64,000 nt of DNA, taken from positions 32,001 to 96,000 of the IMG/VR virus record IMGVR_UViG_3300033463_000025. The stretch is one strand, 5' to 3'. Origin of the DNA: a virus. Taxonomy: Duplodnaviria; Caudoviricetes. Below the pieces are notes generated by a model that saw only the letters and a list, made by a program, of their open reading frames with translations, was not told the DNA's origin and ran no database searches. Made by a program: the position numbers and the translations under genes. Shown here piece after piece: positions 4,444-63,686 of this stretch (positions within the stretch are counted from its first letter, which is position 1; each line of letters starts with the position of its first letter).

Positions 4444-6416
4444 TTCATAATACCGTCATCAGATAAGACATTCATCCATCTGCGTTTATCAAACTCGTTT
4501 TTGCGAATCTTCTGATAACTGCTTGTGGGGGTATAAAAGCCTACAACTCTTGCATAAGTATCAGCGATAGGCTCTCCACAAATCGGGCATTTCTTTTCGC
4601 TAATAAATGCGTGTCTATGTTTACACACACTAATCTTTGTTGTAAATGCAAAGTAGATAACGCCTTGAGATGCAACATAATTGAGCATATCCCACGCTGT
4701 TTCTTCGTTGGGGAATCTGTTTTCTATGTTAATATGTGCGATACAACCGCCGCCGCATTTTTTATCAAACAAAGAACCGAGCCTACATTTTTCTTGAATG
4801 GTACACTTCTCCATAAGGGGCAACCATTGATTTGAATAAATGAAGTATTTATTCTGTTCAAATAACAGATTGTCAGCTTGACAGATAACACCTGCACAAT
4901 TTTCGGCTGGTATCATCTCAAGGTTAAATGAGAAATCACACTCGAAATTATCTTTAACTTCGTTTATCACATCGAGGATTTGTGTTGTAAATTCAACCGC
5001 CTCATCTGAATAACTCTTACATCCAAGCTCATCGGTATTAATTAAGCCGAACAAATCCATAACCTCATATATACCGATACCGCCTATAGTGCAAAACTGC
5101 TTATCTAATTCAACAGCACCGTCACAGTAGTTAGGCAATAATCCCTTTTCAATATTGCGCTCAATGATGTGACGCATTGATGTTAATGCCTTACAGTTTA
5201 ACAGGACTCTGCTTTTTAATATCTTCAGGTACTTAGATTTATTAAAATCGCTTTCATAAGCGATACGAACAAGGTTAATTGTACTTACTCGGCATGAGCC
5301 AACGGAAAGGGCTGTACCGCCGATTGAGTTAATAAAGGCATCGAGTTTTGTAGTCTCACTGAGCAAGCGACAGCAATTCGATAAAACACCAACATTATCA
5401 CTAACAAAGAAGTTGCTGTCAGACCACTTAATGTTATGATTAGAACACCAACGAGCAAATTCTTCATCTTGGAACTTACCATCTTTATAAAGCAGAGAAT
5501 AAGTAAGTACAGGATAAGTGAACATATTTTGTTCACGGATTTCACTAACCACTTCCATAAATATCTTTTGACACTTAATAATATCTTCAACGTGGTCTAT
5601 AAGTAATGTGCCATCTGGGAACTCCATACCACCAAATAACGATTCGATATACGGTCTATCAAACAGAGAAACGTTTGTGAACGCACTTTGGTCTATGCGG
5701 AGAAATGGTTGATTAAGACGGTAAATCAGCTTTTGATATTGCTGTCTTAAATAATAATCAGGATTTTTCATATAATAACCATTATCGCAGTCTATCTTCC
5801 AAAAATACCATGCCCAAATCAGTACATTAGGCATCCCGACGGCTCCGCTCTGGCGGTTAGATAAGAAACTAACGAACTCAATCACATCATCAAAATAAGT
5901 CGTTAAGTGTTTCGGCGGTTTATTATTATATGTTACACCATCAATCTCAAGCCTATTGCCATCATGGTCAGTAATAACACTACCATTTAAAAAGAATAAG
6001 CCTTCTGTCGCAAGTCTTGTAAAATCGTTAGCCCAACAATAAGGAAAATAACTTGCCGTCGTACTATCGTTTAAATAAAATCCACGGCTGAACTCTTGTT
6101 CTAACCACTGTTTTGCTGTGCGTAAACCCCAACGCTTTTTAATCTCAAGGAATATCTTGTTAAGACCAAACAGCTTATCCTCACTCTTAGCTTTCTCTGT
6201 CATAAAGCTACGAATATCTTTGTGGTTTGCGTTAGCATTAGGGTCGATTGAAGAATCAGCAAGAGTATAATTATCAACAAAGTTGTTAATAAACTCTGAG
6301 AAATCAAGTTGGCTTGGATGAACACCATTAATGTATTCAAAATCCTCACCGTACTTTTGCTTTAATTCTTCAAGGAAACGCTCGAAATCTTTAGATAACT
6401 TTAATTGTATTTCCAT
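4440..6416 (-). CDS. nrdD: class III ribonucleotide reductase
   Basis: C-terminal CxxH/CPICG and RVVGFY glycyl-radical loop; PAEN; CCRL; no ATP cone. Confidence 0.95.
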   Translation of the reverse strand: MEIQLKLSKDFERFLEELKQKYGEDFEYINGVHPSQLDFSEFINNFVDNYTLADSSIDPNANANHKDIRSFMTEKAKSEDKLFGLNKIFLEIKKRWGLRTAKQWLEQEFSRGFYLNDSTTASYFPYCWANDFTRLATEGLFFLNGSVITDHDGNRLEIDGVTYNNKPPKHLTTYFDDVIEFVSFLSNRQSGAVGMPNVLIWAWYFWKIDCDNGYYMKNPDYYLRQQYQKLIYRLNQPFLRIDQSAFTNVSLFDRPYIESLFGGMEFPDGTLLIDHVEDIIKCQKIFMEVVSEIREQNMFTYPVLTYSLLYKDGKFQDEEFARWCSNHNIKWSDSNFFVSDNVGVLSNCCRLLSETTKLDAFINSIGGTALSVGSCRVSTINLVRIAYESDFNKSKYLKILKSRVLLNCKALTSMRHIIERNIEKGLLPNYCDGAVELDKQFCTIGGIGIYEVMDLFGLINTDELGCKSYSDEAVEFTTQILDVINEVKDNFECDFSFNLEMIPAENCAGVICQADNLLFEQNKYFIYSNQWLPLMEKCTIQEKCRLGSLFDKKCGGGCIAHINIENRFPNEETAWDMLNYVASQGVIYFAFTTKISVCKHRHAFISEKKCPICGEPIADTYARVVGFYTPTSSYQKIRKNEFDKRRWMNVLSDDGIMK

Positions 6417-33587: not shown

Positions 33588-34090
33588 TTAGCCGACGAAC
33601 GTTCTACAATCTGTAATATTATCTTCAGCATCACAGATTGGTCTACAGTGTTTAGCGGAAACATATTTCCACTCGTTGCCAGTCATAATAAGAAATGTCG
33701 GATAGCCATTCTTGTTCTGCTTTACATCATAGACGGTTGTTTCAAAACAACGCTCAACCGATTCGCCCTTGTTCTTGTATGTATATAATACTCTAAACAT
33801 AATTAAATCTCTCCGTGATAAATATACTTTCCGTAAACTGTATCGTTTCCATATTTGTCAATGTGTCGTTCGTACTGCGTTTCAATATTATACCTGCGAC
33901 GCAGGTTAAAAATGATAGCACTTAACCTTGTGGCGGCGTACAACTCGATAGCTTCTAAACTTGTTATACTCCCATGTTCCTGTAGATGCTGAAGCACTTT
34001 TAGAGCCTTATTGGTCTTTCTGTGTTTTGATTGAGTTTTCATTAGTAACCTCTTGAAAATAAGTATAGTGTGTTTTATAGCGTTTGTCAA
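33588..34090 (-). other. two small genes; 33803-34090 is an HTH protein
   Basis: HGSITSLEAIELYAATRLSAIIFNLR; promoter TTGACA-N17-TATACT at 34062-34090 means the true start is further downstream. Confidence 0.65.
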
Positions 34091-34095
34091 TAGCC

Positions 34096-34892
34096 TTATT
34101 GACTTATGTTAAAATTTGGATTATTATTTACCCATTTATTGTAAACGAATAATTTTTCTGTTACCTTAAATTGATTATCTTTGTTTCTATCGAGAGTCCT
34201 TGTAAAAGGCTTCTCCCAAATAGCAACAAAGTCATCGGGAGCAACTTGTTCTGAAATAAACATCAAATGGTTTTGACTTACAGTTCGTGCATATTCCCAA
34301 AACGCTTGACTATCAAACACCATTTTGCCATAACCTGTAGTACCGTTGTAAGGTGGGTCTGCGTAAATAACACAGCCTTCTGGTAACTCTACATCACGAT
34401 AATCTCTACAAATGAATTGTGCATCCATAAGTGTAGCCATATCCTTGAGTAAAGATTTCTTGCTTTGTGCGGCATAGTTTGTACCGCCCTTATTACGAGC
34501 ATAACCGCCAAACCATTTACCGCCGAAGCTACAGCCGAATCCAACAAAGCCAGCTAACACCTTATCATCGTTTTTATTGGCTCGAATGTTTTTATAATCT
34601 TCTTCGGATATGTAATCAGGAAGCTCGTAACCGTTCTGAACACCCTGTAACATCGCTATCAGATATTCATGGTTATCGTTCAAAATCTTGTGTTTAAATG
34701 ATGTTAGTTTACTTTCAACAGAACAAGTGCCGCAAAACAAACTGACTAACTCACAGCAGTTTTGCCCCCCCCGTTAGGCGGGAAATAACACTCGCTATTG
34801 ACTTGGAAATTCTTGATTTCCCGCCTTGATAACGCATCTATTTCCTCCGCTATTCTTTTTGCTATACGACTTTTACCGCCTAAATACTGCAT
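34096..34892 (-). CDS. Dam-like (D12-class) adenine methyltransferase, frameshifted at G8 (OFF), two alternative N-termini
   Basis: MQYLGGKSRI (ATG 34892) and MRYQGGKSRI (ATG 34837); C8 at 34765-34772; body LVSLFCG...SFGGKWFGGY...YADPPY. Confidence 0.9.
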
Positions 34893-35227
34893 TACGAAAC
34901 AACAAATTTTTGAATCGCGCTATACAGCTTTTCACTTTCAGAGCCACATACCAGTGTGTTATAATCAACCTCATGTGCGGTATGTTCACGGCTTCTATTC
35001 TTCAAAGCGTTAGCCGCTACGCCAAGCGATGACAGGAATGATTTAGCAGAAATAATCCACTCTTCCCCATTCTCATCAAAGCCCATCAGCTTAACCTTTT
35101 CAGGGATAGCGCAAACAGCCTCATTAAACTCCTTAAAGTCATCGTGGCAGGTAAGTTCAATCTTGTATTCGTAAGTAAACATTTTCATATGCTTGTCCAT
35201 AATTAACCTCATTTCTTTATTGTACAT
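34892..35227 (-). CDS. HPr-like protein lacking the His15 region
   Basis: IISAKSFLSSL resembles the HPr Ser46 motif. Confidence 0.5.
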   Translation of the reverse strand: MYNKEMRLIMDKHMKMFTYEYKIELTCHDDFKEFNEAVCAIPEKVKLMGFDENGEEWIISAKSFLSSLGVAANALKNRSREHTAHEVDYNTLVCGSESEKLYSAIQKFVVS

Positions 35228-37199
35228 TTTCTATTTCTTGTGTATTATCTTCTTCTGTATCGACCCTAAGTATTCTTGCAATTACGAAAACCGTAATTAC
35301 GCAAATAAGTTCAATCGCCAAAAGAATAGATAGGATAATAAGAATAACATTTAGCCATTCAGGAATTGGTATATTCATATTACGAAGTACCGAACTAACG
35401 GTAATGAATATCAAATCAACAAATGGCAGTATAGTAAAAACTTTTGGTAGAATTTTATATAACACTACTTTGTGCCTCCAAACTGGTTTTATAATAAAGC
35501 CTTTTAGCTTTACTTTGAACAATATCCCAATACTTACAATTTGGGATTGAAGTGTTGAGTATTCTTTCAATTTCTTCATGCTCCATTAAAGTGTGTTTAA
35601 AAACAAAAGAATACCCTTTGCTTGAATAACATCTCGGATTGCTATGATTTAACTTGGTAATTTCTAATAAATCACCTCGTATATAAATGGTGATAGGATA
35701 ATGAACATTGAAAACACCATAATTCAAATCGTCGCCGTAACTTAATCCATCACCATATTTAGTAATCCATTTATTCTCAATAGCACCATTGACATTCTTG
35801 CTTGCTGTTGGCTCATTCCCATCCCACATATCATAAGTAAAGCCTAAAAACATCGGAAAAGGAATATCGGAATTATCTGTTATTTTCTTTTTTGGCTCAA
35901 ACTTCATTATGGGTTTCCAATCATCGTGAGTTTTCGGCTTTTCATATCGCCACTCAATCCCGTTATTAAAGATACGCAAATCAATATATTCAATGTCAGG
36001 TAAAGACAACAGCCAATCTCGATACTCTTTAGCCGTGTCAAAATTACCACCATGACGTTTAATCCAGCGAAGCAAAGTATTATCAATATCTTCAAGCTGT
36101 AATTGATATTCGGATTTTTGTTTTGCCGCTTCACGAGCCTCTTTTTCTAATTCAAACATTCTCTTAGCAAACAAAACAGCTTTATCATAATCATAGAATA
36201 CATTTGATTTCTTTATATGTGGGTAATCTAAACGACCATATTCGCTTTTAATACTAACCTCATCGCAATATTGGTATTCATACCTGATTTGCCCAGGTAT
36301 AACATCGTAATGCCCTTCGGGTGTTCTATCAACAAAATATATCGTATCGCTCATTTACTTATTTCCTCAAGAAATGGTAAGCTATCCATATAACGGTTAT
36401 ACTCTTTTATTAGGTTTTCTAAACAGATAAAGCCTGTAACCTCTTTACCAAAGTTTTCACCATAGAATGGTGTATATGGCTGACAAAAATCCTCATCAAG
36501 AACAATGATGTTATCAAAATCATTCCAGTCCGAAAAATTTTCAGTAAAAGCTATATCAATATCGTAGTCAAACTTATACTTTTTACCTTCAATAATTGAC
36601 GTTATTTCAACATAATGCGTTTTGTAAAGAACACAGCCTTCTTTTATAATCCAAATTGCATTACCCTCTTTACAACCTGCTTTGATGAGGTCGTCTTTGG
36701 TAATGCCATCTTTGAGCTTATACCTTTTAATCTGTGCCATTTACTCGCCTCCCGTATTGAAAGTCAGACCAATCCAAAACTTGACCGCAATCTTGACAAC
36801 GCTTATCTCTTACGCGACTACTACTACCGTTGCCGCTTCGTACTCGTCTACCACAAGTTGGGCAACAGCATTGTGTATGACTGCCTAAAACTTTTCTCGG
36901 CGTGAGCATACCAATCACATTATTTAGTGCTATCGTAACATTTACAGGAGCATCGTTAAGCTGTACCATCACAGCCGCGTCTTTTAGGCTATCGAGCAGT
37001 TCAATACTATTCATTTTTTATTTATCCCCATTTTATACTTATGGCATTTATATCTGCCATATCTTCTACGTTTCTTACCTTTTGCAATCCGAAACATCAT
37101 AATCGCCACAACGAGCTGAAGGAAATTTAATATACAAATTGTAAACGAATAATTACCTTTCAGCATTTCGTTCACAATGGTCTTAAAATATTCAATCAT
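35217..37199 (-). other. five hypothetical genes (membrane 35217-35579; 35455-36354; 36351-36740; Zn finger 36727-37014; 37011-37199)
   Basis: packed minus-strand ORFs. Confidence 0.55.
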
Positions 37200-37217
37200 A
37201 TGTATTTGTAATCCTTA

Positions 37218-37724
37218 TCATTTTATTTTTCTTTCAACAACAACTATGGTATCATTGTGCCAACCGCCGTGTGGGACGAGTAACACTTCTTCAATTTCAA
37301 ATCCGTATTTCTTTCCTATACCGCCAGAGTTCCAGCTACAAGTAATAACCTTGCCATTCGATTTTACTATTCGCCCTATCTGTTCTTTTTGTTTAGACCA
37401 GTAACTTGCCTGTGTGGTCTGCATATTCACGGTATAATTCAGTTGTTTATAACACTCGCTCACCTGCCGTGGTGAGAACGGCGGGTCATATAAAACCATA
37501 TCAACAGAGTCATCATCAAATAAAGCCAAAAAGTCTGTAGCGTCCAAATGATAATCTGTATTGTACTGTGTGTCTAAATCATTAGTAACAGTAGCGAGTT
37601 TATTCTTATTAGCAAAAGGGTCGATTATAATGCCCCCCCCGATATGCCGAGCTAACAGCTCTTTAATCGGTGGAACATCAAATGTGTTCTTGCTCGGCAT
37701 AGCCCATTTTCGGCTTATTTTCAT
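37218..37724 (-). CDS. small amino-DNA methyltransferase with in-frame G8 tract (ON)
   Basis: IIDPFAN, LYDPPFS; C8 at 37633-37640 encodes IGGGI; ATGA overlap with the metK stop. Confidence 0.85.
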   Translation of the reverse strand: MKISRKWAMPSKNTFDVPPIKELLARHIGGGIIIDPFANKNKLATVTNDLDTQYNTDYHLDATDFLALFDDDSVDMVLYDPPFSPRQVSECYKQLNYTVNMQTTQASYWSKQKEQIGRIVKSNGKVITCSWNSGGIGKKYGFEIEEVLLVPHGGWHNDTIVVVERKIK

Positions 37725-38509
37725 CGAATCAAACCCCATTCGGCAAACTTTTCAAAACCGCCGACGCTTTTAATATATGCACGAGCGACGTTTACAATTT
37801 GCTCATACGGAATACCGTCAATAGACTCATCACCAATAGCGCAACACATTTCGACTGGTTTACCTGTTTCTTGGGCTTTAAGATGAGCGTAAATGTTTAC
37901 ACTTACATCAGCCTTTGAAAAGTCCTTCCCCATTAAGCCGCCGCCTGTGACAGAATCACCCATATCAGAGCCGAGTTTACGATTTGTAGCACCTGTGTCA
38001 ACCTCTACGCCGCCCGTCCAATAACCAAGCGGATTGACGATTGCATCAGGATATAATTTTGCAATATCAAATTTTTCTGCAAAACTTTGACAAATAATCA
38101 GCTTGTCGCCGTTGAGAATATACTTGCCATCGCTACCATACTTGTCATATAAGCGATGTGCTATATCAGATAAAGCCTTCTGTTCTGCCGTTACAGGCAT
38201 ACCCCTAAAGATACCGTTATCGCCACAGCGGATTTTACCATGCTGATTCGCGGCAAGGTGAATATCTTGCGACACAAGACGGAAATCTGTGAGCAGTTTA
38301 TTCCCACCAATGCGATTAACAATATTGTCTGTCTCATCCCAAGTGATATTTACAGAGCTTTCAACTATGATATGGCAAATACCATGACCGATAAGCACTT
38401 CAACCGCAATCCGTGGATTCTCCGCTTTGGAATACGCTAAGTCAACTAATGCGCCAGCAATTCTATCGGCTATCTTATCAGGGTGTGACGGATTAACTTT
38501 CTCGAACAT
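37721..38509 (-). CDS. metK: compact S-adenosylmethionine synthetase
   Basis: EKVNPSHPDKIADRI, GDNG, DGK, NPLG...DTGATNRK, GGG...GKDFSKAD. Confidence 0.92.
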   Translation of the reverse strand: MFEKVNPSHPDKIADRIAGALVDLAYSKAENPRIAVEVLIGHGICHIIVESSVNITWDETDNIVNRIGGNKLLTDFRLVSQDIHLAANQHGKIRCGDNGIFRGMPVTAEQKALSDIAHRLYDKYGSDGKYILNGDKLIICQSFAEKFDIAKLYPDAIVNPLGYWTGGVEVDTGATNRKLGSDMGDSVTGGGLMGKDFSKADVSVNIYAHLKAQETGKPVEMCCAIGDESIDGIPYEQIVNVARAYIKSVGGFEKFAEWGLIR

Positions 38510-38684
38510 CTCTTACTTCCTCTCTTGTAATGATTGTATCTTCTTTTATTTCGCACATTTTTAATAAATCGTCTTGACAGGTACAAGCGCATGAAAGCGA
38601 ACAACCATAACACGGTTTATATGGTTTGCTGTTACATTTAATCATCAACTTTGCAAATTCTTCTTTTGTACAAATGATTTTCAC
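38493..38684 (-). CDS. small Cys-rich hypothetical protein
   Basis: ORF coupled between the MTase and metK. Confidence 0.5.
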   Translation of the reverse strand: MKIICTKEEFAKLMIKCNSKPYKPCYGCSLSCACTCQDDLLKMCEIKEDTIITREEVRDVRES

Positions 38685-39432
38685 GCAACATTCCTCGCTT
38701 TATTAATTCGTTCTTTAGCAATCTCATACATCTGTAAATCGTTTTCAATACCAATGAATCTTCTTTTGGTATTGATGCACGCCTCGCCAGTTGAGCCGCT
38801 ACCCATGCAGTTATCAAGGACAACATCATCCTCGTTGGTATATGTATTTATTAACCATTCTAAAAGTGCAACAGGCTTTTGCGTCGGGTGAAGTCTGCTA
38901 CCGTCCCTTGAATAGCTCAATATCGACAAAGGATTTCTCGCTCCGTCAAGCGACTCAGTATAAGCTACACCTCTATCGCCGTAGTTATCAGAAAGACTAC
39001 CGTTTTTAGTTTTCTTATATGGTGTTGAATACCATAGCTGTTTATTATATGTGGGTTTCTTTTTATAGAAGATTGCAATTTCCTCATGGGATTTCAAAGG
39101 TTTCACATTAGCATTAAGAAAATCAGAGCCACGTTGTTTATCCCATATAAGGTTATAACGCCACATCTTTTTATTTGATAACATAAGGTCTGCCATAAAC
39201 AAACCATCGCAAAACAAAGCTATACAACCGTTCTGTTTGATAATTCTGTTGTACTGTTCCCATAGCTTTTCAAATGGAATAACAGTGTCCCATTTATTTC
39301 TTGTCGTTCCGTATGGAAGGTCGCAACAAATCATATCAATACAACCGTCAGGGAGTTGGCTCATAACCGATAAACAATCTTGTCGCCAAAGGCTTACCCC
39401 CCCCGACTCAGAAGATTATTTATATCAAGCAT
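38681..39432 (-). CDS. N4/N6 (beta-class) DNA methyltransferase, frameshifted at G8 (OFF)
   Basis: AAGGAG RBS + ATG 39432 gives MLDINNLLSRGG*; C8 at 39397-39404; other frame QDCLSVM...DLPYG...HPTQKP...LDNCMGSGST. Confidence 0.88.
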
Positions 39433-39718
39433 ACTCTACTCCTTCGGGCGGCTCAGGCAATTCAGCCCAAAAACGCACATTAGTTATTTCATAAAATCCG
39501 TATTCGGAATCATAATCAAACCAACCGCTTTTACCATTCTTATCAGCAAAGTCATATTCATCTACATTAATTAGATTATTAGCGTATTTAGCTATTCTAA
39601 GAAAATAATATCCGCTAAGTGTATAAGACTTCGCAAAAATGAGGTAAGGTCTTCTATCTAACTTTGGAGGGTCTAACTGTGCATCGTGCCAAATTACTTT
39701 TGTAGCATTATCGTTCAT
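39425..39718 (-). CDS. hypothetical protein (DUF551-like C-terminus)
   Basis: WH...PP...VRFWAELPEPP. Confidence 0.55.
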   Translation of the reverse strand: MNDNATKVIWHDAQLDPPKLDRRPYLIFAKSYTLSGYYFLRIAKYANNLINVDEYDFADKNGKSGWFDYDSEYGFYEITNVRFWAELPEPPEGVEYA

Positions 39719-39743
39719 ATCGTTTCCTTATATTTCTATTGAC

Positions 39744-41275
39744 TTATGTTATAGATTTTAATAAATGGGCTATGACTTCAACAGTCCAGCCGTTACCTAA
39801 ACATTTATATGCTTGTGAGTTGCTAATCACACTAAAGTCATACCATTCTGGTACTGTCTGCAACCGCATACATTCTCTTACTGTTAGTTTACGAATTATG
39901 TAAAAGCCATCAGACAACTTAATCGGATATGTTTTTCCTTTAATTGTTATCTGTCCATTGACAACTTCGTAAACCGTATATACTTTACCATCGGCAAAGC
40001 TCTTAGCTTTTATAGGTATATCATCTTGCCATTCACACGGTTCAGCATAATGTAACGGATTTTGTGTATTAATCGTTACAGCATACAGCCCTGTCTTACC
40101 ACCAAGACCACCACCATTAGCAGACAACGTAACAGATTTGCCATCTTGCGAATATACCCTCATCGCTTGAGAATTATTTGTTTCTCCATTCGATGACGGC
40201 ATACATCCTACCTGTTCAGCTACCATGCTTTTACAGCCTTTTTCTATAGTATGGCTCACATAGTTCCCTATGTTTTCTCCGCTACCGTTTTTATATCCTG
40301 CTGTTAAGCAATAAGATTTATCGTTCTTAGTCATTCCCACTGGCTCTGCAACACCACTCGCGCCATATGTTGAAGTGTATTTACAGATGTTTGCAATACT
40401 CGTTTGTTGATATTGTGCCTTAATAGTTTGTGACTTTCCTTCACCAGTCGTATTCACTGGTTCAATCGTTCGGGCAACAACGTCGCTCGTTGGATTAGAT
40501 GCTAAACAATATGCTTTATCTTTTACACCAACTCTACGATTGCTTAAATCACCAACCATTGAAAACGCTTTAGGTAACGCAACAGGCTCAACCGCCATAT
40601 TTCGTTGATGCCGCTCTATGGTGTTCCACGCAACCGCACCGCCATAAGCTGTGGTTAGCGTCCAGCCTTTTTCGTTGCTCGTCAAATCATCGGCGTTATT
40701 TTCGAGAATATCTCTTAGTAATATTCCTCTATCCTCTGGCTGTTCTATATCCGCCTTTTGATATGTACCATCTTCTTGACGAATACCAACCCAATACAAC
40801 CGCTGACGGTTTTGAGCTGAAACAAGTGCAGAATTTATACAAATCGGCTCAAATCCAAATGTGTCAGAAATGCTGTCATAAATAGCTCTTGACATTGATT
40901 TGTTGTTTTCGTAAAGAAAGTATTTCGGTTTTGCTTCTTTAATAGCTCTTACAAACTGGCTAAACAATTCCCAGCCCATACCGCTTGCTTCTGTTTCGCG
41001 GTTGTTCTTTTGAGCGATGCTCCAAAAAGTACAGGGCGAACCTCCGATAAGATAATCAATACCGTCAAACTGCGTATAGTCTGCATCAAATACATCACCA
41101 CACTGGATGATACTCGGAAAGTTATGCTGGCTAACTTGAATAGCATACTTATCTATCTCATAAGCATAATAGTCTTTGACTTCTATACCAAGTCTTTTGA
41201 ACGCCAACATACCACAAGACATTCCATCAAATAAACTAAGAACAGATACCCCATCTTGTGATGAAATATCTCTTT
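39744..41275 (-). CDS. C5-cytosine methyltransferase with long repetitive variable region; no in-frame start before motif I
   Basis: VLSLFDGMSCG, EID, GGSPC, YENN, QNRQR, RLQT, GNGW; upstream frame reaches TAA without an ATG. Confidence 0.92.
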
Positions 41276-41416
41276 CATTACAATAATGTTAGTTACGATT
41301 GGCTTATAATCTGACTTTCTATAAATCGCACACAACTATCAATAATTGTAAGAAGAAAATAACTAACGGAATTATGGGGTGTTTAGTAATATGAATCAGG
41401 ATAAAAGAGATATTTC
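41263..41416. promoter_or_regulatory. candidate invertible switch carrying the RBS and ATG of the C5 MTase
   Basis: 13-bp IR GAAATATCTCTTT (41263-41275) / AAAGAGATATTTC (41404-41416); inversion gives in-frame MNQDKRDISSQDGVSVLSLFDG. Confidence 0.65.
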
Positions 41417-41443
41417 CTTATACTCGTTTATCCTACAATTACA

Positions 41444-41472
41444 ATTATAACACTATTTATAACATAAGTCAA
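41444..41472 (-). promoter_or_regulatory. sigmaA promoter for the methylation operon
   Basis: TTGACT-N17-TATAAT; the -35 lies inside a perfect 17-bp motif. Confidence 0.85.
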
Positions 41473-47175: not shown

Positions 47176-47442
47176 CTATGAAACCTTTTTATCAAGCCAT
47201 TTATATAGATTATCTATATCACGTTGGCACTCAATTCTAAACGATACTTCGTAATCGCCGTGCGTAACGCCTCTAAATGTTATACTCCACACTCTTCCAT
47301 CACGGCTGTCAAAGCAAGAGTCAATACATTTTATAGCTCTTCGGTGTCGTATGTGATTTATTTCATACATATGTTCACCCCAAGAGTTATTCTTTTTTAT
47401 GTATTCAAGTAATTTGCAGAATTGTTCAGGTGTCATTTCCAA
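47176..47442 (-). CDS. hypothetical protein
   Basis: ORF overlapping the RT stop. Confidence 0.55.
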   Translation of the reverse strand: MEMTPEQFCKLLEYIKKNNSWGEHMYEINHIRHRRAIKCIDSCFDSRDGRVWSITFRGVTHGDYEVSFRIECQRDIDNLYKWLDKKVS

Positions 47443-48530
47443 TTCCTTTTCTTTTTCTTTGCTCTCTTTTCAATTTTTGATATTACAGATTTTTCTACCA
47501 ATTCAAAACCAGCAATATCATTGATTCTGTGGTCTAAGCGTATGCCTACCGTATGACAATCAGCACGAGAAATATGCTCACGCCATGAGTAATAAGATTG
47601 CCTAAACTTTTCAACGGTCAACCTACCTGCGGCGACAAGTTTTGCCATCTTTACATATTTTCTTTGTGCTGTTCGTTTCTTAGAATTATCTAACCTTCGT
47701 ACAATCACGCCGCTATTGGTGATATATGTATGGAATCCTAAGAACGCAATCCCGTTTTTAATAGGAAATATCTGTGTCTTATTATTTAGCTTTAATCCAA
47801 GTGATTCAATAAAGCTCGTAATGGCTTCTAAACAGTATTTAAGATATTCTAAATCGTGATGTACAAGATAGAAGTCATCCATATACCTGCCGAAATAAGC
47901 AATACCAAGTTCGCCAGTTATAAGTTTATCTAATCCATCCAAGTATAATACAGCAAACATCTGATTAACTTGATTGCCTAACGGCAAGCCAACATCTTCC
48001 GTGCTGTCAATAAACTTGTTACACAGCCACACAATTCCTTCGTCATATCCAAAATAGTATTCAACTATATCTTTCAATAAATCATGCGGTATGTTGTAGA
48101 AATATTTAGATATATCACACTTGAGAATATAGCCATTAAGACCGTGCCTTTTATAAAAGTTCTTTAAATGTTTGCTTAATTGATTAAGTGCTAAATCAAT
48201 TCCTTTACCGTCTTGCCCTGCGTAGTTATCTAATAAAAAGATTTCTTTTGAACGCAACTGCAAAACATTATCACACAGGCTATGCTGTACAACATTATCT
48301 TTAAAACCAGCGACTTTGATTTCACGCTCTTTAGGTTCAAAAACTAAAAAGGTATTATAAGCATCAAGTTCATACGTTCTGTTTTCAAGAAGTGATTTGA
48401 TAGTTAGTACACCATCTAACGCACTAATGTCAAACTTAGCTGTACTCTTCTTTTTACCTCTACCACATTTAGCATCCTTAAAAGCGTTATAAATGTTTTT
48501 AAAATCCGTTACTAATTCAAAATCTGTTAT
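47433..48530 (-). CDS. DGR reverse transcriptase (365 aa if initiated at ATA)
   Basis: FEPKEREI...FKDNVVQH, LKCDISKYF, LPLGNQVNQ, RYMDDF, FLGF; frame open 89 codons upstream of the track start. Confidence 0.95.
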   Translation of the reverse strand: MTDFELVTDFKNIYNAFKDAKCGRGKKKSTAKFDISALDGVLTIKSLLENRTYELDAYNTFLVFEPKEREIKVAGFKDNVVQHSLCDNVLQLRSKEIFLLDNYAGQDGKGIDLALNQLSKHLKNFYKRHGLNGYILKCDISKYFYNIPHDLLKDIVEYYFGYDEGIVWLCNKFIDSTEDVGLPLGNQVNQMFAVLYLDGLDKLITGELGIAYFGRYMDDFYLVHHDLEYLKYCLEAITSFIESLGLKLNNKTQIFPIKNGIAFLGFHTYITNSGVIVRRLDNSKKRTAQRKYVKMAKLVAAGRLTVEKFRQSYYSWREHISRADCHTVGIRLDHRINDIAGFELVEKSVISKIEKRAKKKKRNWK

Positions 48531-61868: not shown

Positions 61869-63686
61869 TTATGCAACCGTTTCTTCCAACATGAGCACTT
61901 TGCTTTCGGGAGAAACGATAAAACGCTCACGCTGGGCGAATGTCTGATTGTACGATTCCTCGCCTTCAAATTCATCTATTACTCGGCGTTCTTCTTCGTC
62001 CATAGCTTTGTATGTTTTCTTTCCGTAGGACGGCGGCAACCAGCCCTTCTTCATACAGCCGTAAATGTTAAACTTCTTCAGAACGTCAAGGTCGGTAAAC
62101 TTGATATGAACTGTACCCTTCTTGTACACGTTTACATCGAAATACTTGAAATGCAAATTCTTTGTGGTCTGCGTTTTTTCGTATGCCTCTAACCAATGGT
62201 GAAGGTCGCGCTGAATTTCATTTTCTCCACCATCAAGGAAGTCAAAACACTTTTCAATATCGTCAAGGATTCTGCCGATTTCTCCGTCATAGAAGTTATA
62301 CTTGAATTTACCCCAAATAGAATCCCAACATCTACACCACGGCACAACAACCCTGGGATTGATGATGAAAGCAGAGTTAGATTTCCAACCGCTGAAGTAG
62401 TGAACGTTTCCACTTGCTTCCATTGAATGTTTGTATGTCAGCTTTTCAAAGAGCGATATGATTTTATCCTCGATACCTTGAGCTACAGACTTGAGCATAT
62501 CAATTCTTACAGCGTAGATATTTGACAACGAAAAATCCTTCTTGGCATATTCCTTTATATCGGCAAAATACTGTTCTTTAAGATTGGAAGTAAGATTGCC
62601 GATAAATGCAGGCTTATGTAAAAGCTCATACCAATATTTGTATCTTACGGAATAAACATACTTGTTCCACTCAAAAGCCTTACCTCTTCCGTCTACCAGT
62701 CCGATATGTGCGCCGCGCTTGTATGAAGGCAACTCTTTTTCATCGCTGGCAAAGTATAAAGAAATATGCGGCGATACGGCAAGGTATTCTTCATACAGCC
62801 TCTTCCCCATCGCTATTTCTTTTTTATACATCAGCACAGCTTGACGCATATAATCAGCGGTCACAATTTCAGAAGTGTTATAGTCAGGCTCATCAACAGT
62901 GATTTCCATTTCCTCAAGCTCATCAAGGATTGTGGAATGTGCATTGTTGAACGGCGAAGGAATATCAATACGCACGATTGCACACTCAACATCTGTCTGG
63001 CGTTCAGCCTGTTTGAAAGCACCGCTAACATATTCAATCTCGGCATTGTAGAAGTCGAGCTGTTTCTTCAATTCTTTGCGCCAATTAGAATAGGGATTGT
63101 CAAGAGTCTGACGGTTAAGCAGACAAATAATCTTTCCGCCTGTTTTCTTGGCTACGTTGATTGCGTGAAGAAGATGCTCGTCGCCGTTGCTAAAAGGCGG
63201 ATTCATAATGATTAAGTCGAAGTGTTCATCGCCGTTAAACTCTAAGAAGTCGCTACCAATAACGGTATAATCTTTGTCTTTAAGGATTGCTCTAAGTCCG
63301 TCGTCAACCTCGATACAATTAACGTCTAACTTTTCACATCCCTCACGAATGTCACCAATGAGATAACGCCTTTCATCTTCATCTTGGCTATACTTTCTTT
63401 TGTTATAGTCTGCTATCCATTGAGTAGTCATGTACTTATAAATCATTTCTTCATAAGTAATTTTATAAGCAACATACTCTTCAAAGATAGGGTCTTTATA
63501 ACGATAGCTCCCCATTCTGTGGCTAACGCAGTAACGCATATAGCAAATGAAGTCTGCAATATCACCCTTGCCTGCTGACGGCTCAAGCACACTCTCAATA
63601 TCGGTCAACTTAATGCCTTTAATCATTTCCGCTACAAGTTCTGGCGGAGTCGGATAAAATTCAGTTAATGATTTGTATGTACTCAT
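61869..63686 (-). CDS. N6-adenine methyltransferase with DUF4942-like C-terminal domain
   Basis: FYPTP, LEPSAGKG, IMNPPF, YKKGTVHIKF, WLPPSYG; promoter at 63767-63795. Confidence 0.88.
   Translation of the reverse strand: MSTYKSLTEFYPTPPELVAEMIKGIKLTDIESVLEPSAGKGDIADFICYMRYCVSHRMGSYRYKDPIFEEYVAYKITYEEMIYKYMTTQWIADYNKRKYSQDEDERRYLIGDIREGCEKLDVNCIEVDDGLRAILKDKDYTVIGSDFLEFNGDEHFDLIIMNPPFSNGDEHLLHAINVAKKTGGKIICLLNRQTLDNPYSNWRKELKKQLDFYNAEIEYVSGAFKQAERQTDVECAIVRIDIPSPFNNAHSTILDELEEMEITVDEPDYNTSEIVTADYMRQAVLMYKKEIAMGKRLYEEYLAVSPHISLYFASDEKELPSYKRGAHIGLVDGRGKAFEWNKYVYSVRYKYWYELLHKPAFIGNLTSNLKEQYFADIKEYAKKDFSLSNIYAVRIDMLKSVAQGIEDKIISLFEKLTYKHSMEASGNVHYFSGWKSNSAFIINPRVVVPWCRCWDSIWGKFKYNFYDGEIGRILDDIEKCFDFLDGGENEIQRDLHHWLEAYEKTQTTKNLHFKYFDVNVYKKGTVHIKFTDLDVLKKFNIYGCMKKGWLPPSYGKKTYKAMDEEERRVIDEFEGEESYNQTFAQRERFIVSPESKVLMLEETVA

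Follow-up and report, generated by a model that had tools for sequence, protein, structure and literature searches.

Why should a phage carry four DNA methyltransferase (MTase) genes in one cassette and have three of them OFF, with no start codon joined to the enzyme, in its consensus genome? This question is raised by the IMG/VR virus record IMGVR_UViG_3300033463_000025 (Duplodnaviria; Caudoviricetes), of which we analysed bases 32001-96000, a stretch of 64,000 nucleotides that is called the window here and whose numbering is used throughout. The cassette lies on the minus strand, as do all of its genes, and runs from a promoter-like site at 41472-41444 to the stop codon of a Dam-like MTase gene at 34096. 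An earlier reading made from the letters alone (the sequence-only reading) had claimed a C5 MTase, an N4/N6 MTase, metK, a small amino-MTase and a Dam-like MTase in this co-directional stretch; all five enzyme genes are present there, and their families could be matched in Pfam and PHROGs, the two collections that we used for assigning gene families. Pfam domains were also searched in six frames over the whole genome, and in these searches PF00145, PF01555, and PF02086 each returned exactly one gene, all within the cassette. We consider it likely that each MTase of the cassette is under the control of a heritable stochastic switch and that several methylation states coexist in the phage population as a hedge against restriction.

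A first line of evidence is the placement of the long homopolymers. In the complete genome (143,758 bp, 36.8% GC), only three runs of G or C reach seven nucleotides, and all three, which appear as C8 in plus-strand numbering, are G8 tracts of the coding strand near the beginning of an MTase gene: 39397-39404 in the N4/N6 MTase, 37633-37640 in the small MTase, and 34765-34772 in the Dam-like MTase. That these are the sole runs of this length had been claimed for the window; it is true of the window and of the whole genome. The distance from the start codon to the tract is 28-120 nt for all three. Runs of C were counted ten times at length 5, not once at lengths 6 and 7, and three times at length 8, and the three runs of at least eight nucleotides compare with approximately 0.2 expected under a first-order Markov model; the observed count was reached in none of 100 shuffles. 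No other coding simple repeats were found in the genome, and its poly-A/T runs of eight or more nucleotides lie mostly outside open reading frames (ORFs) of at least 80 amino acids. Frame modelling of tract lengths from G6 to G10 agreed with the claim that two of the tracts break the frame and that the third is in frame.

The N6_N4-class MTase gene (38681-39432, minus strand; PF01555, E=3e-34) is OFF as assembled. Its start codon, an ATG at 39432 preceded by AGGAG, opens a leader of 13 codons that stops at a TAA (39396-39394) directly after the G8 tract, while the frame of the enzyme body runs for 244 codons with no internal stop. When the tract was modelled as G9, the start was joined to a 251-residue enzyme, and G6 gave one of 250 residues, with a conserved Cys-Leu motif before motif IV. 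The start chosen by gene callers is an internal ATG at 39364 that has no ribosome-binding site. Slipped-strand mispairing during replication would alter the length of the leader tract, with lengths of the G6/G9 frame class joining the start to the enzyme and G8 leaving the gene OFF. A comparison of related phages for tract-length polymorphism, proposed as a check in the sequence-only reading, revealed such polymorphism for this gene and, as (GA)4/(GA)8 repeats, for the Dam-like gene. The homologous N4/N6 tract, with near-identical flanks, was found as G5 at three loci, G7 at three loci, and G9 at two loci, and only G9 is in frame; these alleles belong to one allele group and come from independent Illumina assemblies of different samples. 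In other relatives (L009 and L010), G9 or G11 tracts are located at other codons of the same gene, which suggests that such tracts arose more than once. Relatives at approximately 80% identity comprise long forms whose leader contains a Gly run, short forms beginning at the internal Met, and many tract-less forms with ordinary starts.

Three further observations were made around this gene. Eleven relatives (P0053, P0060, P0061, P0068, P0071, P0072, P0079, and four others) share a Pro-Pro leader just before motif IV, which may be an out-of-frame reading of the usual N-terminus and may mark another tract or frameshift site in this sublineage. Some relatives have an inserted TnpB/IS605-OrfB gene (L112:4636-5733 and L117:441-1538) that precedes the N4/N6 MTase, and Cpn60 (GroEL) adjoins MTases in relatives.

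The D12/Dam-like adenine MTase gene (34096-34892, minus strand; PF02086, E=1e-11) appears to hold a switch with three positions. Ahead of its tract are two tandem N-terminal modules in different frames, each with a Y-x-G-G-K motif and each with a start codon. The first start, an ATG at 34892, overlaps the stop codon of a 111-residue ORF (34892-35227, minus strand) as TAATG, an overlap that implies translational coupling; the second, an ATG at 34837, has its own GGAGG site. In the models, G7 and G10 fuse the second start to the body (246-247 residues), G6 and G9 fuse the first (266-267 residues), and the assembled G8 fuses neither, with the GGK motif detached from a body frame of 225 codons that contains no internal stop. 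The features of the D12 class are present in the form of the GGK motif, the FxGxG motif I, the DPPY motif IV, and the Dam fold. The 120 cluster representatives of this family divide into 57 of the short type, 41 of the long type, and 22 truncated forms, of which at least two are long-type with an altered motif; the dual-start design is kept in at least 98 of the 120. The junction repeat in relatives is read either as Gly runs (poly-G) or as Arg-Glu repeats encoded by (GA)n, and in one lineage recovered from different samples, (GA)8 gives the long form (L120) and (GA)4 the short form (L121-123).

When natural forms of both lengths were modelled with AlphaFold, each showed a confident N-terminal helix directly after the GGK motif; the 22 residues by which the long form exceeds the short one are loop-like, with a predicted local distance difference test (pLDDT) score below 50, and the best fold matches of the relatives' models were E. 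coli Dam and T4 Dam (Foldseek E ~1e-8). Judging from these models, it is plausible that the short and the long products are both enzymes. One frame class of the tract would then give the short enzyme, a second would give the long enzyme, in which the second module is translated in another frame and forms a loop. The third, represented by G8, would give none. With such a three-state design, a slip in either direction would turn the OFF allele back ON.

The fourth switch does not involve a homopolymer. The frame of the C5 cytosine DNA MTase (39744-41288, minus strand, 514 codons; PF00145, E=2e-39, profile positions 2-322) is open from 41288 and has no internal stop, but its first ATG (41222) is already inside motif I and no earlier start is found as assembled. 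A candidate invertible start had been proposed for this gene, and both the arms and the frame logic were confirmed. Two 16-nt inverted-repeat arms, 41401-41416 upstream and 41263-41278 downstream, pair with one mismatch (94% complementary) across an interior of 122 nt (41279-41400); the downstream arm is translated, as it lies within the 5' end of the C5 frame, and the core of the upstream arm resembles the arms in relatives. As assembled, the ribosome-binding site and the ATG (41391-41393) of the interior are on the plus strand, opposite to the gene. When the 154-bp segment 41263-41416 was flipped in the model, GGGGTG-N9-ATG came into frame and gave a 514-residue enzyme with motif I. In the proposed mechanism, a site-specific recombinase would flip the segment and with it the ribosome-binding site, the start codon, and the beginning of the coding sequence; the assembled orientation would be OFF.

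Both orientations were found in sister genomes. C5 homologs in other phages of 90-200 kb are laid out alike, with arms whose cores are similar, and in these homologs one orientation provides an in-frame start and the opposite one a stop at the arm boundary. The interior is inverted between the two members of each of three sister-genome pairs: when one member is reverse-complemented, 134/137, 130/136, and 125/128 positions are identical (96-98%), compared with approximately 56-62% in direct alignment, and the downstream flanks of the pairs are 94-99% identical. Approximately 29 relatives are ON and 8 are OFF, counted without L128, L132, L138, and L143, in which the arm pairs have two mismatches in AT-rich DNA and are probably due to chance. 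Because the promoter-like site lies outside the segment, the switch most likely acts on translation initiation. No recombinase gene adjoins the inverton, and all five inverton-bearing genomes examined encode two to three tyrosine recombinases, and one of the five encodes a serine recombinase; the invertase is probably one of the phage's tyrosine recombinases. Another candidate for the C5 switch, a +1 slip at the G4 run 41249-41252, would work by frame arithmetic but was set aside: this run is short and not over-represented, and inversion is what is seen in relatives. In the OFF orientation, a weak terminator-like hairpin with three GC pairs (41244-41271) overlaps the downstream arm and the G4 run, and some attenuation of transcription might thereby reinforce the OFF state.

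The third G8 tract differs from the other two in that the gene around it is intact. The small DPPF-motif DNA MTase (37218-37739, minus strand; phrog_11619, E=2e-49) has 173 residues, and its tract encodes Gly-Gly-Gly at codons 35-37, in frame and thus ON. In a relative with 80% identity (L204), the tract is likewise an in-frame G8, although the flanks differ. Any one-base slip in this tract would turn the gene OFF, and we regard a role as a switch as plausible.

The association between long tracts and MTases is also seen beyond this genome. In related phages, seven of ten scanned ORFs beside long G/C tracts are MTases, and these belong to three families. In the genome whose C5 homolog is closest (G003), the inverton is accompanied by a pair of neighbouring N6_N4 MTases, both of which have a tract of 8-9 nt close to the start, and a 148.8-kb relative keeps the order N6_N4, MetK-like, and Dam-like. 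Directly upstream of the two tract-bearing MTases in G003 is a gene for a 125-residue zinc-ribbon protein (L207:2265-2642) that weakly matches the Lar family of restriction-alleviation proteins, a neighbour that fits an anti-restriction neighbourhood. Not every long tract is in an MTase gene: in L012, a G10 tract (5060-5069) lies 11 nt upstream of the frame of an 807-residue VapE-like protein of the primase/helicase type.

Taken together, the alleles found in natural relatives support the view that the tracts and the inverted-repeat segment act as genuine DNA-level switches there, and for three of the four switches this view is well supported by natural polymorphism. The same switching would be expected within the population of the phage studied here. 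Its purpose would be that some members survive in hosts with type I-III systems, which cut unmethylated DNA, and others in hosts with type IV systems, which cut methylated DNA. The sequence-only reading had counted up to 16 methylation states; this number follows from four binary switches, but the Dam-like switch has three states. In its broadest form, the proposal is that large phages of gut Bacillota carry a combinatorial randomiser of the methylome that lets a single burst yield progeny in at least 16 methylation states, prepared in advance for hosts of opposed restriction logic, as a widespread form of counter-defence undescribed in print, and we see the chances of this wider claim as evenly balanced.

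The same switches could serve a different purpose, namely control of phage or lysogen expression, as in a phasevarion, or a limit on the cost or toxicity of the MTases, rather than hedging against restriction. Such a role would suit a genome that encodes integrase-family recombinases and has one relative classed as a provirus, and there are precedents in the literature: prophage MTases can alter host phenotypes, as with PamA of S. aureus (PMC13076061), and many MTases of mobile elements in gut Bacteroides are silent (PMC10333322). We nevertheless find this explanation rather unlikely, as four separately switched enzyme classes suit evasion in varied hosts better than the control of a single regulon. 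Phage orphan MTases are, moreover, classically anti-restriction enzymes.

Several observations weigh against the view that all four MTases are switched and that the switches operate in this phage. The evidence for switching comes from relatives of other lineages, and the phage itself is known in one orientation. For the small MTase, we found no OFF allele but only the in-frame G8 in two lineages, and nearly all of its 5307 relatives are without the tract. The truncated 227-residue product of the N4/N6 gene keeps the whole Pfam domain, and its inactivity is assumed. As for the invertase, the window's 324-residue tyrosine recombinase was tried as a candidate and set aside, being matched in only two of the five inverton-bearing genomes. 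Outside the cassette, a 605-residue DUF4942 protein (61869-63686) has a weak Dam/MTS-like region and is possibly a fifth MTase, with no repeat or inverted-repeat switch. Finally, both frame-breaking G8 alleles could be rescued by the same -1 ribosomal shift, such that OFF may mean low rather than zero.

This last point leads to recoding as an explanation, in which the G8 tracts are sites of programmed -1 ribosomal frameshifting or transcriptional slippage, the MTases are made constitutively at a low level, and length variation is incidental. Ribosomes and RNA polymerase alike are known to slip on homopolymers. At 39397, a -1 shift on G-GGG-GGG enters the enzyme frame, with a stop codon following the tract, and at 34765 a -1 shift from the first Dam start yields exactly the long form that G9 encodes. 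The comparison with relatives makes recoding improbable as the main explanation: G5, G7, and G9 at the same site would each need a different correction, many relatives have (GA)n repeats that hold no frameshift heptamer and of which (GA)4 and (GA)8 choose different starts, a shift on the third tract would destroy a product that is in frame, and the fourth gene is switched by DNA inversion. Because of the G5/G7/G9 and (GA)n alleles in relatives and the in-frame third tract, we argue that DNA-level change is the main variable, and recoding may make the OFF state leaky.

It is also very improbable that the broken frames are assembly or sequencing errors, with tracts that are truly in frame and MTases that are ordinary constitutive anti-restriction enzymes. 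All three tracts are exactly 8 nt long and homopolymers are error-prone on some platforms, but errors alter the length of a tract and do not create three G8 tracts limited to MTase 5' ends at 37% GC. The ends of the genome share a 127-bp repeat, as in a circular contig from a short-read k-mer assembly; this overlap indicates such an assembly, for which the G8 lengths would be reliable. The same OFF products are found on a contig of 143,772 bp, which is 14 bp longer and would fit a k=141 assembly of the same genome. In addition, relatives differ by 2-8 nt and not by one, and the missing start of the C5 gene is unrelated to homopolymers. Gene decay, in which the broken MTases are outgoing pseudogenes and the repeats mere break points, accounts for three of four MTases being non-functional as assembled and for many relatives being called truncated, but it is scarcely credible for genes that carry none of the other inactivating lesions named in the sequence-only reading as evidence against switching (225, 244, and 514 codons stay open), whose proteins are approximately 80% identical to those of intact relatives, of which the Dam-like one has a dual-start design conserved in relatives, and whose ON and OFF alleles alternate among near-identical lineages.

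The switched genes are probably expressed as one transcription unit. On the minus strand, the order is the C5 MTase, a 97-residue ORF (39425-39718), the N6_N4 MTase, a MetK-like gene of 262 residues (37721-38509), the small MTase, five small ORFs of no assigned function, and the D12/Dam-like MTase; the 97-residue ORF in the interval between the C5 and N4/N6 genes, as well as the four co-directional ORFs at 35455-37199 (299, 129, 95, and 62 residues), found no confident family in Pfam or PHROGs. The probable cassette promoter is the site at 41444-41472, which lies directly outside the upstream arm of the inverton and reads TTGACT-17-TATAAT with a TG-extended -10 element; it is the best consensus match (11/12) between 34000 and 41900, a region in which the number of promoter-like sites equals the shuffle expectation and the sites are consensus matches only. 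A second site of this kind (34062-34090, minus strand), likewise an 11/12 consensus match only, directly follows the Dam stop codon and sets the downstream boundary of the cassette. The first gene beyond this boundary encodes a 95-residue winged-helix protein (33803-34090; HTH_39, E=8e-12) and has its own promoter-like site. Pfam and PHROGs recognised neither a res nor an hsd partner in the cassette, and the MTases are therefore taken to be orphan enzymes.

The cassette may also supply its own S-adenosylmethionine. The MetK-like protein is approximately 120 residues shorter than the canonical three-domain enzyme of approximately 385 residues, and only its N-terminal domain passes Pfam (PF00438). 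Methionine adenosyltransferases in the PDB align to residues 3-70 and 156-213, which contain the N-terminal HPDK and the C-terminal GGG..GKD motifs, respectively. More than 567 homologs at approximately 70% identity are found in IMG/VR phages, which makes this a very large and tightly conserved family, and the corresponding entry, phrog_1569, is annotated as 'unknown function'. At the same position in one relative (L113) is a 531-residue protein with all three MetK domains. Judged by these motifs, a supply of S-adenosylmethionine from the compact protein is plausible.

The minus strand holds nearly all genes. Among the proteins that the genome encodes are a DnaB helicase, a polymerase of the DnaE type, an anaerobic ribonucleotide reductase, the integrase-family recombinases, and a reverse transcriptase. 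By polymerase, the closest deposited genomes are Clostridioides phage pCD1602_4 (47% identity) and large Bacillus siphoviruses, and the related contigs come from gut metagenomes; on the basis of these polymerase relatives and the gut origin of the contigs, the host is probably a gut member of Bacillota. Megablast found no near-identical genome among deposited phages. An exact-flank pattern for the tract at 39397 had no match in IMG/VR, exact look-ups of the 227-residue N4/N6 product and of the three possible products of the small MTase gave nothing, and a metagenome scan found no relatives of the 299-residue cassette ORF. The reverse transcriptase (47433-48263; phrog_1423, E=3e-67) is presumably part of a diversity-generating retroelement, which would be a second diversifying mechanism in the same phage, acting on proteins.

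Phage MTases are usually seen as an invariable means of resisting restriction. Should switching prove routine among them, a phage population would have not one constant 'epigenetic identity' but a distribution, which would bear on host-range prediction, the design of phage therapy, and methylation-based linking of phages to hosts in metagenomes. 'Broken' phage MTase genes should then not be taken as pseudogenes or errors, and an explanation would be at hand for MTases that are silent on mobile elements. With the natural ON and OFF alleles as ready reagents, one could test the trade-off that a phage faces between restriction that is methylation-sensitive and restriction that is methylation-dependent. 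For gene regulation in general, two compact designs are of interest in addition, the inverton that carries a start codon and the three-state repeat switch with its two starts.

The nearest known counterparts are bacterial phasevarions, in which a repeat in the 5' coding region slips and sets the frame of an MTase ON or OFF, with several such genes possible per genome (PMC10123105, PMC13076061). The cassette resembles those of Haemophilus, Neisseria, Helicobacter, Campylobacter, and Actinobacillus, which involve Type III mod and Type I hsd genes, in the 5' repeat and in having several switching MTases. It differs in that the enzymes are phage-borne orphans of the D12, N6_N4, and small DPPF types with no res or hsd partner, and not genes of a host-adapted pathogen.

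Hypermutable homopolymers have also been described in phages. Receptor-binding genes of Fletchervirus phages of Campylobacter contain poly-G tracts (Sorensen et al. 2021, cited in PMC12823448; bioRxiv 10.1101/2025.10.21.683753), contingency loci of T2 and T4 are likewise in print, and the same preprint mentions in passing, as not studied further, a poly-G tract in a methylase of Bordetella phage BPP-1 (bioRxiv 10.1101/2025.10.21.683753). Such loci share with the cassette the tracts in phage genes and the mixed populations that serve as a bet-hedge. Compared with the Fletchervirus-type class (G tracts of 7-11 nt in receptor-binding genes), the type of tract matches and the type of gene does not: the published targets are receptor-binding, baseplate, and rII-type genes, whereas here they are MTases, one with three states and one switched by inversion. 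The claim that the combination had not been described in a phage thus stands in part. Our literature searches found no published description of a phage with all of its MTases switched, but poly-G contingency tracts in phages are in print.

With regard to the inversion, Type I hsdS 'epigenetic invertons' (PMC7672463) and intragenic invertons (bioRxiv 10.1101/2023.03.11.532203) have been reported. The C5 segment has in common with these, and with fimS, hin, and the capsule promoters of Bacteroides, the short inverted repeats and the occurrence of both orientations in nature, and with the hsdS invertons also that the switch governs DNA methylation. In contrast to all of them, it carries neither a promoter nor alternative coding modules but only the ribosome-binding site, the start, and the first codons, and one of its arms is translated.

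The dual-start arrangement of the Dam-like gene has a parallel in lic1 and lic2A of H. influenzae, in which CAAT repeats follow starts in two frames and two of the three repeat frames give a product. The two systems are alike in having two starts in different frames upstream of a repeat. In the Dam-like gene, however, each start brings its own copy of an N-terminal motif that is important for catalysis, the tandem modules lie one frame apart, and the products differ by an inserted loop and not only in amount.

Finally, T4 Dam, P1 Dam, and the multispecific C5 MTases of the Bacillus phages SPR and phi3T are constitutive anti-restriction enzymes, none of which is known to be phase-variable. The cassette is similar to them in its orphan enzymes, in the presence of several per genome, and in the Dam fold, and it is distinguished by the switching of each gene, with three of the four OFF in the consensus genome. 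What appears to be new in comparison with all of these systems, besides the tallies of switch states in nature, is that every Pfam-recognisable MTase of one phage would be switched, by two mechanisms, one of which is a compact start-codon inverton with comparative support.

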